From the NCBI GenBank assembly GCA_003327455.1, contig QOQU01000001.1, positions 258,337-322,336 on the forward strand: a stretch of 64,000 bases of DNA. Reading direction: 5' to 3'. Positions 5,789-60,753 of the stretch are shown in pieces. Position 1 is the stretch's first letter. Every line of letters begins with the position of its first letter. The DNA comes from Anaerolineae bacterium. GTDB lineage: Bacteria > Chloroflexota > Anaerolineae > Anaerolineales > UBA4823. The position numbers and the translations under genes were made by a program. The notes beneath the pieces were generated by a model that worked only from the letters and a program-made list of their open reading frames with translations, searched no databases and was not told the origin of the DNA.

Positions 5789-6004
5789 CAGTCCTCCTGA
5801 GGATATGGGATTTTCTGTGGTCGGGCAATTGCCGCTCAAACCGAAGACCGAGTGCTGCGTCAATCGTGTATCCTGCTCACCTCACCCCCTCTACGTCCTC
5901 TCAGATGAGATCGGCTTACAACGACTCTTGCGCCATCGGTATCTGCTGTATTATAACGCAAGCTCGCGAAAGTTTATGTGAACAGAATTGGCTCTTTTTA
6001 CCCG

Positions 6005-6322
6005 CCCTCATCCCTAACCCCTCTCCCATGGGCGAGGGGAGTTTGATTCCCCTCCCCCTTAGGGGGAGGGCCAGGGTGAGGGATAAGAGCATAAGCGTCC
6101 AGGTGCAGTGGGCGAGGGGAGTTTGCCCTCACCCCCGGCCCCTCTCCCATGGGGAAAGGGGAGTTTGATTCCCTCCTCCTTAGGGGGAGGGCCAGGGTGA
6201 GGGATAAGAGCATAGGCGTCGAGCGGCGGCAGGCAAGGGGAGTTTGCCCTCACCCACAGCCCCTCTCCCATGGGGAGAGGGGAAACCCTCACCCCCATCC
6301 CCTCCCATGGGGAGAGGGGAGA
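6005..6322. repeat. Cluster of G/C-rich nested palindromes ('GEG' element family)
   Basis: Repeated CCCCTCTCCCatggGGAGAGGGG, CCCCTCCCCCttagGGGGAGGG and GGGTGAGGG/CCCTCACCC modules. Both strands translate to PLPxGEG-type pseudo-ORFs. Confidence 0.85.
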
Positions 6323-7921: not shown

Positions 7922-8059
7922 GGTCGGTTCGGTCATAGAGAAATTTCCAGATTGCTCTACGAAATCAGCGTAGGGCAAATTTCAATTTGCTCAAGACTGA
8001 GTGCCGGGACGCTATCGTCCCCAATGCCCGATATAATGAATTAATTCGGCAATTTTTCT

Positions 8060-8730
8060 TCTCCGGCGGGGGGATCAATTCCCCGCCTCAATCTAGAAAA
8101 GTCGGCTGGAAGCCGACGCGTTCGCCTTCTTCAGCCCCGCAAGGGCTTCCATGAATTGAGGCAGGGTTTTAACCCTTGCCGTCTTCTGACTGACTGACCT
8201 CCATTGCGCAGCGGGATCAATCCCTCGCTCAATCCATGGAAGTCGGCTGGAAGCCGACTCTGAATCCGCTTGAGCGGATTTTCATCTCCTGAGCAGGGGC
8301 TTGAGCCCCAGCGAAGGGATACCGCTCCCTCAAGCCCGGCTTTCTGCGCGCCGCTTGAAGGATTCCACCAGGAAAAGGATGGGGGAGAAGCGATGGCGCA
8401 CAGGCTGAATGCCTGTGCTACAGGGACGGGCTGAAGGGCTGGGGCATGGTAAGCAGGGGCTTCCAGCCTGTGGGGGAGAGGAATTTGGCACAGGCTGAAT
8501 GCCTGTGGTACGGTCAGGCGGGGAGGAACCCGACCTCTGCTCGACAAATCGGAAGTTCGCACAGGCTGAATGCCTGTAGTACGGGTGGCGCAGGGATTGG
8601 GGGAGGGAGCGGGGGCAAGGCGAGGCAAAGGCGGGGCAGCAGGGACGAAATCAATTTCGCCCTAACTGGCGAGGGTTTGAGGGGTTGGGTTGCGAGGGGG
8701 GAGATAGCGCAGGAAGGGGGGGCAGGCTGA
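8060..8730. repeat. Array of short unrelated stem-loops (5-8 bp stems, 3-4 nt loops), including 3 copies of CACAGGC-tgaa-GCCTGTG and 2 copies of GTCGGCT-gga-AGCCGAC
   Basis: Read directly: GGCGGGGggatcaattCCCCGCC (8065-8089), GTCGGCTggaAGCCGAC (8101-8117, 8242-8258), AATCCGCttgaGCGGATT, GGGGCttgaGCCCC, CACAGGCtgaaTGCCTGTG at about 8399, 8489, 8560. Confidence 0.8.
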
Positions 8731-8804: not shown

Positions 8805-9625
8805 CGCTTTGAATGCCCTGACGGGCGGTGGAGGACTCCACTGGGTGGGAAAGATGGAGGTCTGGATTGGTCTTAATGCCCTAACGGCGGACAAGGGGGA
8901 TTCGGATTTGTTCGGTCGGGACGAGCGAAGCCCAAGGGGCATCATTCGGGCTATTGCGTGCCCCTTCTACTGGGCTAGCAGGCGTCCCGCCTGCTGTTGC
9001 GCATCTCGCACGGCCCCTTCGGTCGGGACGACCGAAGCCCAGCAAGTGCCAGCGACGGGCGGACAAGGATTCGGACCCCAGATTTTCAAGTGCGACGGGC
9101 AACTTCACATTCGTTGTCCGTCTTAATGCCCTAACGGGCGGACAAGGATTCGGACCCCAGATTTTCAAGTGCGACGGGCAACTTCACATTCGTTGTCCGT
9201 CTTAATGCCCTAACGGGCGGACGAGGATTCGGACCCCAGATTTTCAAGTGCGACGGGCAACTTCACATTCGTTGTCCGTCTTAATGCCCTAACGGGCGGA
9301 CAAGGATTCGGACCCCAGATTTTCAAGTGCGACGGGCAACTTCACATTCGTTGTCCGTCTTAATGCCCTAACGGGCGGACAAGGATTCGGACCCATAACG
9401 GCAGTCGCTTTGAGTTCCGCACTGCCGGGCATGGGTCTTAATGCCCTAACGGGCGGACAAGGATTCGGGCTAAAGGGGGGTATGCAATACGTTTTTAACA
9501 AGGGGGTTATCGTGAGTCTTAATGCCCTAACGGGCGGACAAGGATTCGGGCAAATGAAGAGGTATCTGTTCTACCATTACGGAAAATGGTCTTAATGCCC
9601 TAACGGGCGGACAAGGATTCGGGCC
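8805..9625 (-). CRISPR. Orphan CRISPR array. It has 7 intact 36-nt repeats (9120, 9199, 9278, 9357, 9435, 9516, 9590), one 5'-truncated repeat (about 9055-9076) and two degenerate repeats (about 8805-8840, 8870-8906)
   Basis: Repeat GTCTTAATGCCCTAACGGGCGGACAAGGATTCGG(A/G)C with 38-45 nt spacers. Minus-strand reading ends ..GGGCATTAAGAC (ATTGAAAC-like handle), and the degenerate repeats lie at the left end, so a minus orientation with the leader at about 9626-9760 is proposed (orientation confidence about 0.5). No cas ORF in the window. Confidence 0.9.
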
Positions 9626-10106
9626 CCGATTGCTCTCTTTTTCACAAGCCCCACTTTGCCCCTGTTTTTTGCCTTTAATCTGCTTTATCCGACCCACTAG
9701 CAGGGGGTTTTTGTCCTTCTAGGGCTTGTTTTCTCCCACTTTTTAAGGTTCGAGGTCATTTTGCGTACCCCCCTGCCAATTTGAGCCATTTTTGCCCGTT
9801 TTTTAAGGGGGGATGCGCAAATTTCAGCCAGGGGTTATTATACCCGTTTTTCTGCCATCGGCAAGGTTTTTTTTGGAGGCGTTTTTTACCAGAAATGCGG
9901 GTAGGGGTAGCGGGAGCTTCAGCCCGTGCATAACTGCGACAACCTGAAAGCTGGGTTACGGAGGGACAGCTTAAAGGCTGTGTCACGATCCAGGCTGACG
10001 ACATGAATGTCGCCCTACAAGGAGCAGCGAAGCGGGAGCGCGGTATAATGCCCATGGGGTTCATCCCCAATAAAATTAACCCTGTTGCAAAGGTTATGGT
10101 ACCGCT

Positions 10107-22637: not shown

Positions 22638-22714
22638 CGGGGTGTGGCGCAGTACGGTAGCGCACCGCGTTTGGGACGCGGGGGTCGGCGGTTCAAGTCC
22701 GCCCGCCCCGACCT
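22638..22714 (+). tRNA. tRNA-Pro (anticodon TGG)
   Basis: Hand-folded cloverleaf: acceptor CGGGGTG/CGCCCCG, D stem GCGC/GCGC, anticodon stem CCGCG/CGCGG with loop TTTGGGA, T stem GGCGG/CCGCC. Confidence 0.9.
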
Positions 22715-23050
22715 TCGCAGTGGATTAACTAACTTGATAAGGTCGTTACTCGCTTATATTGTCACGCAAGCAACCCGAAAAAGCCGAAAGCAAGCGGAGC
22801 GGAACGCAGTGGAGCGGAGCGCAGCTTTCGGCTCAGGGTTGCTTGCGTAGGTTCGGGTGGGTGGGGGTTTGGGATGGTTTCAATCCGCGCGGGAGGCACT
22901 TCTTACCTGACACGCTCCTAACCTATCACCTGGAGAAGCGCGGTCGCGTTTTGCCAATTTTCCCCCCAGGAAAATTGAGCAAAACGGTTCATTGAATCTA
23001 TTCGACATTCTTCAACCGGATGAAAGCAATTCATCCTATACACTCTTTCT

Positions 23051-23222
23051 CTCCACAACCAGGCTAAGGCTTTCTCTCTCTGCCGGCGTTCCATCTCTGA
23101 CCTGGTTATAGCTTTCTCTCTATGCCGGCAATTCATCCACAACCTGGCCAAGTATTTCTTTCTACAACCTGGCTAAGGCTTTCTTTCTACAACCTGGCTC
23201 TGGCTTTCTTTCTCTGCCGGCG
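23051..23222. repeat. About 5 imperfect tandem repeats, core ACAACCTGGCTAAGGCTTTCT(C/T)TCT(CTGCCGGCG)
   Basis: Read directly. A related CTGCCGGCG(a/t)TCCATCTCTGACCTGG(c/t)TAT(a)GCTTC block recurs at 24894-24930 on the other side of the gene module. Confidence 0.75.
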
Positions 23223-23337
23223 GTATATCTCTCTCAGTTGTATAAGCGGTACGGGTTTATAAGGGGAAGGTTGGTTTGATGAGTAGATGAGATCGGGGTA
23301 TTGGTTGGCGGTTCGATGCGCAGACGTTCCACAGTTG

Positions 23338-23511
23338 TTAGCTGTCCGAATCCTGGTTGTTTTGGTTTTCTTCTGATTCTTTGTCTAAATCAATTCGAAA
23401 CAAAGGATAATGATTCTCTGGATAGGGATTAGCAAGGGAGATTAGGGCAAGGATGAATAGAAGGATGATGAAAGTTTTCAGGAAGCAGGTTAATTCAAGG
23501 ATATCTAGCAT
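23338..23511 (-). CDS. 57-aa small membrane protein (hand-called; MLDILELTCFLKTFIILLFILALISLANPY...)
   Basis: The ATG overlaps the upstream stop (AAATGCTAG); one TM helix. Last gene of the island module. Confidence 0.45.
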   Translation of the reverse strand: MLDILELTCFLKTFIILLFILALISLANPYPENHYPLFRIDLDKESEENQNNQDSDS

Positions 23512-23711
23512 TTGGGTTTCCTGATGGGGTTTTTCGATGGTTGAAGTTGGTTCAGGATTTCTTTGATTTGCTCCAGGCGTTCGGTGATTTTATTCAGGGC
23601 TTCAAGGTGCTTTTCGTCTTTGATTTCCTGGCGTTTCATGAGTTCGAGGGTGTACCAGATGAAGATGGCCAGGAGGGGGAATTGGATGAAGACAGGTAAA
23701 AGGTCTTGCAT
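23505..23711 (-). CDS. 68-aa N-terminal TM plus coiled-coil protein
   Basis: LPVFIQFPLLAIFIWYTL TM followed by a charged helix. Tightly packed in the module. Confidence 0.5.
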   Translation of the reverse strand: MQDLLPVFIQFPLLAIFIWYTLELMKRQEIKDEKHLEALNKITERLEQIKEILNQLQPSKNPIRKPKC

Positions 23712-23715
23712 GGGT

Positions 23716-24093
23716 TTATTCCTGGTCGGTAAGGGTTGATGCGTTTTGGGTTAGTTCATGGGTGAGTTCTTTCAGGATGTTGGTGAGGGGGTTTTGTTCT
23801 TCTCGCCGGCGAGTTTCGATGATGGATTGGGTGTTGTAGATGCGGGCGATCGAAAGGGTTATTTTCAGCATGGTGTCGATGTAGGTTAAAAGGGTTTCCT
23901 GGCTGATATTGGATGATTTCAGTTCTGCCATGATTCTTCTCCCGATTACTCTAAGGGCGTTTATTTCGGATTTTAGGGTTTCATCCAGGTTGTCAAGGTC
24001 GGCTCTTTCCAGTTGTCTAAATGCGCGGGCATAATAGCCATGTTTGAGGGCATTTAAGTTTCCTCTCGGCGCGCCTCTGTGTTTGTGATCCAT
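23716..24093 (-). CDS. 125-aa protein with an N-terminal GAPRGNLNALKHGYY motif, unknown function
   Basis: I associate the GAPxGNxNAxKHG motif with small phage/plasmid-borne proteins. This rests on memory only, with no homology search. Confidence 0.45.
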   Translation of the reverse strand: MDHKHRGAPRGNLNALKHGYYARAFRQLERADLDNLDETLKSEINALRVIGRRIMAELKSSNISQETLLTYIDTMLKITLSIARIYNTQSIIETRRREEQNPLTNILKELTHELTQNASTLTDQE

Positions 24094-24290
24094 AGGATTC
24101 TGGCTTTTTGATTGATATTGCGAAGGTGCAGGCGAACGGTTTGGGGTGATAGGTTTAGTTCTTGGGATATTTCTTTTTTCGATTTGCCGGCATTGCGCAG
24201 GTCGTTGATGATGCGTTCGGTATGGGTGAGGATGGGGATATTGTTACCGGTGAGATAATACCTGGTTTGATTGGTGATGATGATCCGCAT
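24054..24290 (-). CDS. 78-aa LuxR/sigma70-region-4-type HTH protein
   Basis: SKKEISQELNLSPQTVRLHLRNINQK helix-turn-helix. Confidence 0.55.
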   Translation of the reverse strand: MRIIITNQTRYYLTGNNIPILTHTERIINDLRNAGKSKKEISQELNLSPQTVRLHLRNINQKARILWITNTEARREET

Positions 24291-24474
24291 GGCTTGTTTT
24301 GGTTGATTGAAGTTTTTCCAGAATGGGGCGGGGGATAGGTTGATTGTTGAGCAGGCATTTGAGAAATAGACGGTATTCTTTATCGTTCAGGTTTTCGATG
24401 GCGGAGGTTGAGAAGGTGTAATGGGTTCCGTCCTGGTAGATGGTGCAGGTCATATGGGGGATGGTGGTTGTCAT
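24244..24474 (-). CDS. 76-aa hypothetical protein (start moved to MTTTIPH, 2 nt after the upstream stop)
   Basis: ORF packed as TAAGCATG after the Zn-ribbon gene; no recognisable motif. Confidence 0.4.
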   Translation of the reverse strand: MTTTIPHMTCTIYQDGTHYTFSTSAIENLNDKEYRLFLKCLLNNQPIPRPILEKLQSTKTSHADHHHQSNQVLSHR

Positions 24475-24476
24475 GC

Positions 24477-24734
24477 TTAGATTCCGAGTTTGTAGTTCAG
24501 TTCTTCTTGGAAGCAATCGTGGCAAAGGGGGAGTTCGACTTTGTAGGCGCCATCTTCACCGACGCTGGTTTCGAGGATGATAACGGCTTTGTTTCCGCAT
24601 TGGCAGTTTAGTTGTCTTCTTTTATAGGCGGGGTCGTTGCGGTGGCAGGGCAGGCATACGCCTAAGCCGTTGCCTTCTCCCAGGTAGGGAAGGTTGCAGA
24701 TTTTACAATTTGGTTTGATGCGGATGTTGGGCAT
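24477..24734 (-). CDS. 85-aa Cys-rich zinc-ribbon protein (island copy); paralog of 41206-41505
   Basis: CKIC..CLPC..CQC..CHDC; alignable with CRSC..CLAC..CAC..CEQC of the 41206 gene, including shared LPYL and VE(L/I)PLC blocks. Confidence 0.65.
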   Translation of the reverse strand: MPNIRIKPNCKICNLPYLGEGNGLGVCLPCHRNDPAYKRRQLNCQCGNKAVIILETSVGEDGAYKVELPLCHDCFQEELNYKLGI

Positions 24735-24747
24735 GTTTCCTCTCCAA

Positions 24748-24796
24748 ATAGAACGTTTGTTCTATTTATTTTAGAGAAGTTTTACTTAAATGTCAA
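24748..24796 (-). promoter_or_regulatory. Island module promoter (TTGACA 24791-24796, 17-nt spacer, TAAAAT 24768-24773) with a Cheo-type LexA box ATAGAACGTTTGTTCTAT (24748-24765) over the predicted start site
   Basis: Read directly; perfect GAAC-N4-GTTC core. Confidence 0.65.
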
Positions 24797-24947
24797 TCGG
24801 GGAATTGGCTTGCGAATGGGGCGAATTCATGCTAAGATAAGGTATCTTTCCCTCCCAAGCCTCTGATGGTTGTAAGCCATCAGGGGCTTATGTTTGCCGG
24901 CGATCCATCTCTGACCTGGCTATGGCTTCAGGTTATTAATTGAGGTG

Positions 24948-24956
24948 TGTTATAAT
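24948..24956 (+). promoter_or_regulatory. Extended -10 promoter candidate (TGTTATAAT) firing rightward into the 35-bp repeat array
   Basis: TGnTATAAT read directly; no good -35. Confidence 0.35.
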
Positions 24957-25000
24957 ACAGGTGGCTTCTCTCTATGCCCTTGATGGTTGCCATCCCATCG

Positions 25001-25187
25001 GGGGCATTTTCAATCTAACGACAATTTACCCACCGTGGGCATTTTCAATCTAACGACAATTTACCCAGCTGGGGCATTTTCAATCTAACGACAATTTACC
25101 CAGCTGGGGCATTTTCAATCTAACGACAATTTACCCACCGGTGGCATTTTCAATCTAACGACAATTTTCCCACAGGGAAAATTGTCG
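25001..25187. repeat. Five exact-period 35-bp tandem repeats (GGCATTTTCAATCTAACGACAATTTACCCA + 5 variable nt) ending in a 13-bp perfect hairpin CGACAATTTTCCC-aca-GGGAAAATTGTCG
   Basis: Unit starts at 25004, 25039, 25074, 25109 and 25144. Hairpin 25159-25187 followed by GTTCATTTTA. Confidence 0.9.
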
Positions 25188-25708
25188 GTTCATTTTAGAT
25201 AAAAACGCCCCAACCTTGCCCAAGCCGAACACGAAGTCGGATAAAGAGGTTATTTTAGCTTTTCTTATCTGAGTGGTTTTTTCAACCTTGCCCAAGCTAC
25301 GGCTGGGCAAGGCGTAAGTTTTGCCCCTAATCCCCCTATCCCGCCCCCCCATGTTAGACTTTCCTTGCTGGGGTGTGGGGGTTGGGTGGGGGGGCTTGGG
25401 GGGGCGGGAGGGGGAGGGGCAAAATTGGGGCGTGGTTCATTCTTCCAGGGGGTTTGTCAGGTGGGAAGGGGCTAGTTTTCCAGGTGAGGGCGGTCGTTCG
25501 GTTCGCATGGCTGAGCAAACGGACTATAACCCGGTCGTGTCAGGCGTTTTTGTTCAAGGGGCTATTGCATGACCTGATAACCTTTGCATTAAGTGCCTCT
25601 GTGTTTGCGCCAGCAGGTTTTGCCTGGGCATTTTCAGGCGTGGGCTGGGCGGCGCGGTTTCTTTTCCTTGTTTCTACGCCGGCGGTTGTTGAAAACGATT
25701 ATCATTAT

Positions 25709-25993
25709 CAGGAAGAGAAAGAATAAAATTGTAAAGTCCATGTCGCACGTCATGAAAACGAATTTCATTATCAATATCTTTATTCGGAGACAAGCTTCAT
25801 TTAACTTGTTTCTGCTCGAAGCCAAATACGCGCAAGCCGCTATTCTGTAACGCATGATAGACTCGCCCGGTGCCGCAACCCATCTCCGAACGTTTTTTCC
25901 GTCATTGTTCGCTTCATTTAACTTGTTTTCATCCCGGCTTTAGGACGCGGGGGTCGGCGGTTCAAGTCCGCCCGCAACTCACGCAAGCAACCC
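25709..25993. other. Collinear micro-copy of the upstream chromosome: four short blocks identical to 20944-20979, 22407-22478, 22674-22706 and 22762-22776
   Basis: Blocks at 25709-25744 (36/36), 25816-25887 (71/72), 25943-25975 (33/33) and 25979-25993 (15/15), same order and orientation. The linkers contain GCTTCATTTAACTTGTTT twice. Confidence 0.85.
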
Positions 25994-26100
25994 TGTTTTC
26001 GCTTGCTTTCCCTGGCCCTCTGGGGGTGGGTGGGTGGGGGGTGGTGGCGGTGCTTTGCTCGATGCCGGCGTTCTCGCATGTTCGCTTCTTTCTGCTGGCT

Positions 26101-26220
26101 TTGCTTGCTCAATGTCTGGCTACGATTCGGTCCGCGGTGAATGCTTGCTCAATGTCGATCTACGATTCGGTTCTCGGTGAATGCTTGCTCGGTGTCGATC
26201 TACGATTCGGTTCTCGGTGG
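26101..26220. repeat. 3 x 40-bp tandem repeat (TGCTTGCTCAATGTCGATCTACGATTCGGTTCTCGGTGAA)
   Basis: Copies start at 26101, 26141 and 26181. Confidence 0.85.
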
Positions 26221-26431
26221 TTGTTTAATTGGTGTGGCTTAACAAGAATAAAAGCGAATCCGGGTTTGGGTTAGTGGGGGAATGGCGGTTCAAGTCCGCC
26301 CGCCCCGACCTTCTGGGGGCATAAAACGATCGGTTGCGAAAGTGCGACTCCCATTTATTGTGTTTTTACTGCAAAAGCCTTAAATGGGCTGCTCCCCTTG
26401 CCCACCGAAACACCCAAACGCCTATGTCCTT

Positions 26432-26790
26432 ATCCCTCACCCTGACCCTCTCCCTGAGGGAGAGGGAACCTGACTCCCCTCGCCCATTGGGAGAGGGGTT
26501 GGAGGTGAGGGCATTCTCCAATCCCTCACCCTGGCCTTCTCCCTGAGGGATAGAGAACTTGACTCCCCTCGCCCATTGGGAGAGGGGTTGGAGGTGAGGG
26601 CATTTTCCAATCCCTCACCCTGGCCTTCTCCCTGAGGGAGAGAGAACTCAACTCCCCTCGCCCATTGGGAGAGGGGTTGGAGGTGAGGGCATTTTCCAAT
26701 CCCTCACCCTGGCCCTCTCCCTGAGGAATAGAGAACTTGACTCCCCTCGCCCATTGGGAGAGGGGTTGGAGGTGAGGGGGATAAGCCCTT
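26432..26790. repeat. 4 x 89-bp tandem array of the complete 'GEG' nested-palindrome unit
   Basis: Unit atCCCTCACCCtggCCCTCTCCCtgaGGGAGAGGGaac..CTCCCCTCGCCCattGGGAGAGGGGttGGAGGTGAGGGcatt. Copies start at 26432, 26521, 26610 and 26699. Confidence 0.9.
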
Positions 26791-60106: not shown

Positions 60107-60283
60107 GGAGAGGGAATCAAACTCCCCTCGTCCAACGGGAGAGGGGCTGGGGGTGAGGGCATTCTCCCCTCGCCTCGTGGGAGAGGGGTTGGGGGTGAGG
60201 GCACTATCCCCTCGCCCAGCAGGAGAGGGGTCGGGGGTGAGGGTTTCCCCTCGCTCAACGGGCGAGGGGGCGGGGGTAAGGGC
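60107..60283. repeat. 'GEG' elements: about 4 tandem half-units CCCCTCGCCCnnnnGGGAGAGGGGnnGGGGGTGAGGG
   Basis: Read directly, period about 46 bp. Confidence 0.85.
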
Positions 60284-60378
60284 TGCTCCCCCAGGTTAGC
60301 CTGCAAGGCTTTCACGGATTCAGGCAGGGCTTCAGCCCACCGAAAAGGTCACCCATCGCACCTGGACGCCTGGGTTCT

Positions 60379-60581
60379 TATCCCTCACCCTAACCCTCTC
60401 CCTAATGGAGAGGGAATCCATCTCCCCTCGCCCTGTGGGAGAGGGGGCGGGGGTGAGGGTCTCTTCCCTCGCCCTATGGGAGAGAAGACGGGGGTGAGGG
60501 TTTCCCCTCGCCCCATGGGAGAGGGGCCGGGGGTGAGGGCACTTTCCCCTCGCCCAACGGGCGAGGGGAGGGGGGTGAGGG
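60379..60581. repeat. 'GEG' elements: one full unit plus about 3 half-units
   Basis: atCCCTCACCCtaaCCCTCTCCCtaatGGAGAGGG... followed by repeated CCCTCGCCCnnnGGGAGAGnnnnGGGGGTGAGGG. Confidence 0.85.
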
Positions 60582-60753
60582 CTTCGTCGCGTGGCAGAGG
60601 GGTAAATTCGGGGGTAAGTGCTTCCTCAGGCGAGGAGGAGTGACGGCGATCTGAATGCGGGCGCAAACCCGCAAGGGTTGGGGCGGGCAGAGGCAGGGCT
60701 CTAGCCCGCCGTGAGAGTCAAGGAGATGTCTCGCACCAGGCAGTTGCGATCGC

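Follow-up and report, generated by a model that had tools for sequence, protein, structure and literature searches.

A four-copy run of the oldest repeat-spacer unit at the trailer end of a CRISPR array in a Bellilinea-like (Anaerolineae) chromosome

The 64-kb stretch of DNA analysed here (the window) is ordinary chromosome, carrying metH, an MTHFR fusion, mntP, thioredoxin, a CarH-like regulator, photolyase, gyrA, peptidases, and transporters. Between a 240-aa ORF and mntP lies a genuine CRISPR array, which belongs to a Bellilinea-like (Anaerolineae) chromosome and is transcribed on the minus strand. Seven full 36-nt repeats (GTCTTAATGCCCTAACGGGCGGACAAGGATTCGGAC), starting at positions 9120, 9199, 9278, 9357, 9435, 9516, and 9589, show at most one mismatch and are separated by spacers of 37-45 nt. 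Arrays found in other assemblies, some at this site and some at a second locus, hold 8-19 repeats. The minus-strand sequence of the repeat is GTCCGAATCCTTGTCCGCCCGTTAGGGCATTAAGAC, 36 nt with a short GCCC/GGGC hairpin and the 8-nt end ATTAAGAC.

We read the array on the minus strand because a conserved leader and a promoter-like site lie to its right and decayed repeats to its left. The leader (9625 to about 9900, minus strand), delimited by a promoter scan and a leader alignment, is T-rich on the plus strand. A near-identical leader stands at a second array with the same repeat (L007-L010, metagenomes; seen in L010), which has 15-17 repeats and a different trailer, and the leader is partly conserved beside the related-repeat array of Bellilinea sp. 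W58_124 (L012). It holds a conserved inverted motif, TTTTGCGTACCCCCC...GGGGGGrTGCGCAAA, which is its best-conserved part. The promoter-like sequence TTGCCG-16-TATAAT, on the minus strand at 9864..9837, matches at 10 of 12 positions and is the only one in the region; one such site per region is expected by chance, and it has supportive weight only. With the array on the minus strand, the copy that comes first on the plus strand occupies the last and oldest array position.

Four identical 79-nt units make up that old end of the array (9077..9392, minus strand; found by Tandem Repeats Finder and sequence matching), each consisting of one 43-nt spacer, here called S (CCCAGATTTTCAAGTGCGACGGGCAACTTCACATTCGTTGTCC), and a 36-nt repeat of the ...GGAC variant. 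The four exact copies of S lie at 9077-9119, 9156-9198, 9235-9277, and 9314-9356, all in the same orientation and with a period of exactly 79 bp, the sum of the 36-nt repeat and the 43-nt spacer. Both the positions and the period had been given by an earlier reading of the sequence alone and were confirmed here; Tandem Repeats Finder called 9055-9394 with a period of 79, 4.3 copies, and 99% matches. The repeats inside the block are at 9120-9155, 9199-9234, 9278-9313, and 9357-9392 (minus strand). An A>G change in the second of them is the sole difference among the four units and stands at 9223, where the sequence-only reading had placed it at about 9222. The count of four is that of a single assembly, across 316 bp of perfect 79-bp units.

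S had no match elsewhere in the 64-kb window with up to three mismatches permitted, and so no self-target there; a shuffled sequence control likewise gave 0 matches. We also considered S as a repeat-derived sequence and rejected this: beyond a shared ACGGGC, its similarity to the repeat is no better than that of shuffled sequence or of other spacers.

Leader-ward of the block, again on the minus strand, the array continues with three unique spacers, each followed by a ...GGGC repeat. Spacer 3 (42 nt, 9393..9434), which is not in the arrays of the relatives L003, L014, and L015 described below, is followed by a repeat at 9435..9470 with A>G at 9469; spacer 2 (45 nt, 9471..9515) by a repeat at 9516..9551; and spacer 1, the newest (37 nt, 9552..9588), by the leader-proximal repeat at 9589..9624. 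Repeat variants in the window are thus divided between ...GGAC in the amplified units and ...GGGC in the three leader-side repeats. The leader-proximal repeat is of the ...GGGC type in the window, L003, and L017 and of the ...GGAC type in L014, L015, L016, and L018. The three ...GGGC repeats of the window fit two integrations since the mutation; in L003 the variant is confined to the first repeat.

Two of the leader-ward spacers resemble other sequences. Spacer 2 (9471-9515) contains AGGGGGGTATGCAATACGTTTT, which is like the inverted motif TTTTGCGTACCCCCC...GGGGGGGTGCGCAAA of the leader (window 9745-9830), a motif conserved beside Bellilinea arrays. It matches the L012 leader at 19 of 22 positions (minus-strand offsets 128-150 of the leader, within 621-896), and may have been acquired from a foreign array's leader. 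The newest spacer (9552-9588), AAATGAAGAGGTATCTGTTCTACCATTACGGAAAATG, and a spacer of the second array, AATGAAGAGGTACATTTACTATCGCTATGGGACTTATTAC, have AATGAAGAGGTA in common and then diverge. The latter is the eighth spacer of that array (L007-L010; start 10527, minus strand of L010). The likeness looks as if two strains had sampled one gene of related mobile elements.

Loci of relatives at the same chromosomal site were recovered by exact-protein look-ups of two flanking genes, giving the comparison among strains and metagenomes that the sequence-only reading had proposed. L003 (GCA_034435935.1, a MAG) has flanks 99.0-99.4% identical to the window and the same trailer, truncated repeat, and leader; its array begins with one S copy, carrying a T>C allele, and goes on with seven different spacers. 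L004 (GCA_020725715.1) is 99.99% identical over 9054 nt, and its contig ends inside the truncated repeat, a break that is expected of a repeat that short reads fail to resolve. L015 (ERZ511475) starts inside S and continues with a full repeat, S, a repeat, and 17 other spacers. Because an S-repeat-S junction is impossible in a one-copy genome, this independent metagenome assembly has at least two S copies. L014 (ERZ511474) carries the same 17 spacers as L015 and starts exactly at ACGGGC, which is where the trailer path diverges from the full-repeat path into S; such a start is what a graph bifurcation would give. The copy number of S is therefore one in L003, at least two in L015, and four, as assembled, in the window, with flanks 98.6-99.4% identical.

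These arrays also confirm polarised turnover. The window, L003, and L014/L015 have only S in common, at the trailer end, and their leader-ward spacers all differ (three in the window, seven in L003, and 17 in L014/L015). S is the oldest, trailer-end anchor spacer and is common to every strain variant recovered. Exact-protein look-ups of the ORFs overlapping the four-copy block found no other contig with the block.

The trailer beyond the block holds decayed array material, likewise on the minus strand. One decayed CRISPR repeat, GCTTTGAATGCCCTGACGGGCGGTGGAGGACTCCAC (8806..8841), is identical in L003 and L004, and another with indels, GTCTTAATGCCCTAACGG-CGGACAAGGGGGATTCGGAT (8871..8908), is also found in both. 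Directly next to the block is a truncated terminal repeat (9055..9076), with the same junction in L003. It had been described as 5'-truncated, which is right on the plus strand, where it corresponds to repeat positions 15-36. In the transcription sense, however, it is a 3'-truncated terminal repeat, made up of the first 22 nt and missing the hairpin and the 8-nt ATTAAGAC end.

The bases that precede the truncated repeat on the plus strand had been said to resemble the interior of the spacer, and tested in place this resemblance is real. The motif ACGGGC is found both in S (nt 19-24) and in the repeat (nt 15-20). With the alignment anchored there, CCCAGCAAGTGCCAGCG (9039..9054, minus strand; in L003 and L004) appears as a putative remnant of an older S copy, facing S nt 1-18 (CCCAGATTTTCAAGTGCG); of 20000 random genomic 26-mers, no more than 4 reach its score against those 18 nt. 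An unanchored local alignment of the pre-junction bases to S, in contrast, is not significant. On the simplest reading, the pre-junction bases would be homologous to S, as an older, decayed extra copy of it. That copy would have lost 33 nt (S nt 25-43 and repeat nt 1-14) between the two ACGGGC motifs and would then have decayed. The junction of the truncated repeat is identical in one-copy L003 and in L004; it is thus older than the present amplification and unconnected with it, not its source, contrary to the suggestion that the amplified unit itself arose at this junction.

Several other short elements recur in the trailer. Within 8040-8600, an element of about 50 nt ending in the hairpin GTCGGCTGGAAGCCGAC is present in two copies, at 8066-8117 and 8208-8258; the former resembles a terminator when read on the minus strand and could terminate the pre-crRNA. 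Three copies of the palindromic GCACAGGCTGAATGCCTGTGSTAC (8398, 8488, 8559) and two copies, 107 nt apart, of the 24-nt hairpin-forming TTCGGTCGGGACGA(G/C)CGAAGCCCA (8911-8934, 9018-9041) were found in the trailer and none elsewhere in the window. CCCA-type bases, similar to those at the start of S, follow each of the latter two, which could derive from units older still.

We looked for cas genes in the 64-kb window, in the 10 kb beside the second array (L010), and in the 8 kb beside the L012 array and found none. The repeat matched none of the Rfam CRISPR-DR families, even at E <=10, and a 29-mer of it had no match among one-genome-per-species GTDB contigs. A 20-mer covering the hairpin and 3' end of the repeat did match Bellilinea MAGs (one related-repeat array beside dnaN and one single match), as well as giving one single match in an unrelated genome. 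The genome records that contain the 3' part of the repeat are labelled Bellilinea sp., class Anaerolineae. Type III systems and certain type I systems, such as those of Thermus thermophilus and Synechocystis arrays, use 36-nt repeats of the Cas6 type that end in ATTGAAAC or ATTGCGAC. We take the ATTAAGAC end of the window repeat to resemble these ATTGAAAC and ATTGCGAC ends of Cas6-processed repeats. The 36-nt repeat length, the GCCC/GGGC hairpin, the ATTAAGAC end, and spacers of 34-46 nt are alike in the two, whereas the window array is unlike them in being without nearby cas genes and without an Rfam CRISPR-DR match. Both the activity and the type of the array's system are what we infer.

Searches for the target of S gave no convincing match. 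BLAST against 50,697 phage and 72,556 plasmid records, another check proposed by the sequence-only reading, returned chance-level partial matches (E >=2), and neither half of S had an exact match in IMG/VR. Pattern scans of IMG/VR with three other spacers were likewise empty, including a degenerate pattern for a target common to AAATGAAGAGGTATCTGTTCTACCATTACGGAAAATG and AATGAAGAGGTACATTTACTATCGCTATGGGACTTATTAC of the two arrays. Given the missing protospacers, the databases may simply lack the viruses of this lineage.

The array is otherwise normal, and tandem duplication of a repeat-spacer unit is an ordinary event that the literature documents. Here the oldest unit was very probably copied head-to-tail by replication slippage or by unequal homologous recombination between neighbouring repeats, and on this point we agree with the sequence-only reading, which had preferred recombination or slippage to adaptation. 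A period equal to repeat plus spacer, identical co-oriented copies, and a position at the old end of the array together form the signature of slippage or recombination, and a copy-number difference between strains with the same flanks fits either process. New integrations copy the leader-proximal repeat. As the amplified units end in ...GGAC and the leader-side repeats in ...GGGC, the amplified units are copies of an old unit and not recent acquisitions.

The course of events can be proposed from the structure of the array and from published experiments. Misalignment between two repeats spaced 79 bp from each other would first have produced two S copies. The resulting 79-115 bp of perfect homology would then have made further expansion or contraction easy, leading to the four copies of the window, and the A>G at 9223 would have arisen in one copy after amplification. 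The sequence would fit slippage and RecA-dependent unequal crossing-over alike, and similarly the single copy in L003 could reflect either a deletion from a multi-copy ancestor or an expansion in the window lineage. All four S copies would yield one and the same crRNA, and the amplification is presumably neutral.

Comparable events have been described in other arrays. In the SpacerPlacer catalogue, about 3% of CRISPRCasdb spacers are duplication candidates, and 86% of those events are simple duplications, linked to replication misalignment (PMC11472070). As in our case, duplications there are tied to misalignment of repeats, and they are the commonest non-canonical event, at 86% of complex events; by the authors' further argument, the homology that duplicated spacers add should speed their loss (PMC11472070). 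Our four-copy run lies towards the unusual end of these events, yet is the same kind of event. Repeat-spacer duplications also arise in Streptococcus thermophilus strains in which cas1 or cas2 has been deleted and are thus independent of adaptation (PMC8860593). In those type III-A and II-A arrays, an existing spacer and its repeat are duplicated together, co-oriented and with no need of Cas1 or Cas2, which the authors ascribe to homologous recombination or template slippage (PMC8860593). The S. thermophilus events were leader-adjacent and seen by deep sequencing of cultures, whereas the run in the window is fixed in an assembled genome and lies at the trailer end.

A further parallel is the DR/CRISPR locus of Mycobacterium tuberculosis, where single-unit tandem duplications occurred 11 independent times among 198 genomes (PMC7708916). 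The DVR duplications of this locus resemble ours in that a single unit is repeated head-to-tail with a lineage-variable copy number, and also in that they form bifurcations in de Bruijn graphs and break contigs (PMC7708916). The examples considered here from that study have one extra copy (PMC7708916), in contrast to the four consecutive copies of the window, and come from an array in which spacer acquisition has ended, whereas at our site the leader end is wholly different between strains that are about 99% identical.

The behaviour of such repeats in assembly graphs bears on the count itself. Perfect 79-bp tandem units are precisely what assemblers miscount, four of them (316 bp) exceed the typical short-read length, and the near-identical L004 assembly (99.99% over 9054 nt) stops in the truncated repeat, so that the assembler could have unrolled a graph cycle to four when the copy number was lower or different. 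We consider such an artefact unlikely, since L015, assembled independently from a different sample, has a genuine S-repeat-S junction, and L014 terminates at precisely the branch point that the presence of both junctions predicts. Moreover, a simple loop round an identical cycle would not yield the private SNP at 9223. These three observations indicate that the duplication is real in the population, although the exact number could be off. That Cas1-Cas2 integrated the same protospacer four times running is extremely improbable. A re-acquired prespacer would also give identical spacer boundaries, and reacquisitions do exist, if rarely, at about 1% of duplication candidates (PMC11472070). However, the S copies occupy the trailer end, below every strain-specific spacer, one-copy L003 has the same trailer junction, the amplified units are of the old repeat variant where recent integrations copy the ...GGGC leader-proximal repeat, and experiments yield such duplications without Cas1 or Cas2 (PMC8860593).

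Selection is the other explanation to be weighed. Extra S copies could raise the crRNA dose, or only the duplicated copies, being flanked by two intact repeats, could be processed normally; the single S of L003 adjoins a repeat that has lost its hairpin and 8-nt end. S alone is common to all strain variants recovered, is duplicated in at least two strain backgrounds with different younger spacers, and has a probable older decayed copy. We nevertheless find selected amplification quite unlikely. The last spacer is deleted less often if the last repeat is mutated (PMC11472070), so that a damaged last repeat would by itself lead one to expect conserved trailer spacers and reduced last-spacer loss without selection, and searches of the window, phages, plasmids, and IMG/VR yielded no target of S. 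Very unlikely, too, is the idea that S is a domesticated spacer whose crRNA has a standing role, directed at a persistent mobile element or a host target, and which has been repeatedly duplicated, with only the duplicated copies normally processed. Its basis would be that S is kept in every strain while the other spacers turn over, and occurs as one decayed copy, as at least two copies, and as four.

Slippage or unequal recombination between neighbouring repeats, which we prefer, has little significance beyond this genome and makes the locus a clean natural example of repeat-spacer copy-number instability. The case unites a relative with a single copy, an independent relative with more than one, and what was probably an older copy, since destroyed by microhomology deletion. 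Its main use is as a caution for the assembly and typing of arrays and as a marker with which to follow Bellilinea strains. Interest would rise only if the conserved and repeatedly duplicated anchor spacer had a selected function.

Repeats of other kinds were observed elsewhere in the window. The 3' 42 nt of a tRNA gene at 22638-22711 recur at 25934-25975 (93% identical) and at 26262-26303 (67%), and these copies of the tRNA end bracket about 3.3 kb of low GC (0.48-0.50) and few ORFs (window 22638-26303). Tandem arrays within the bracketed stretch include a 35-nt unit repeated 5.3 times (24994-25177), a 40-nt unit repeated three times (26102-26219), and 25/42-nt units (23052-23213). The stretch has the appearance of one or two small elements integrated at a tRNA gene, or of their remnants, with iteron-like repeats. 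In addition, REP-like palindromic tandem clusters (CCCTCACCC...CCCCTCTCCC...GGGAGAGGGG...GGGTGAGGG) with periods of 37-121 nt occupy the intergenic stretches 6004-6320, 26432-26778, and 60122-60585.
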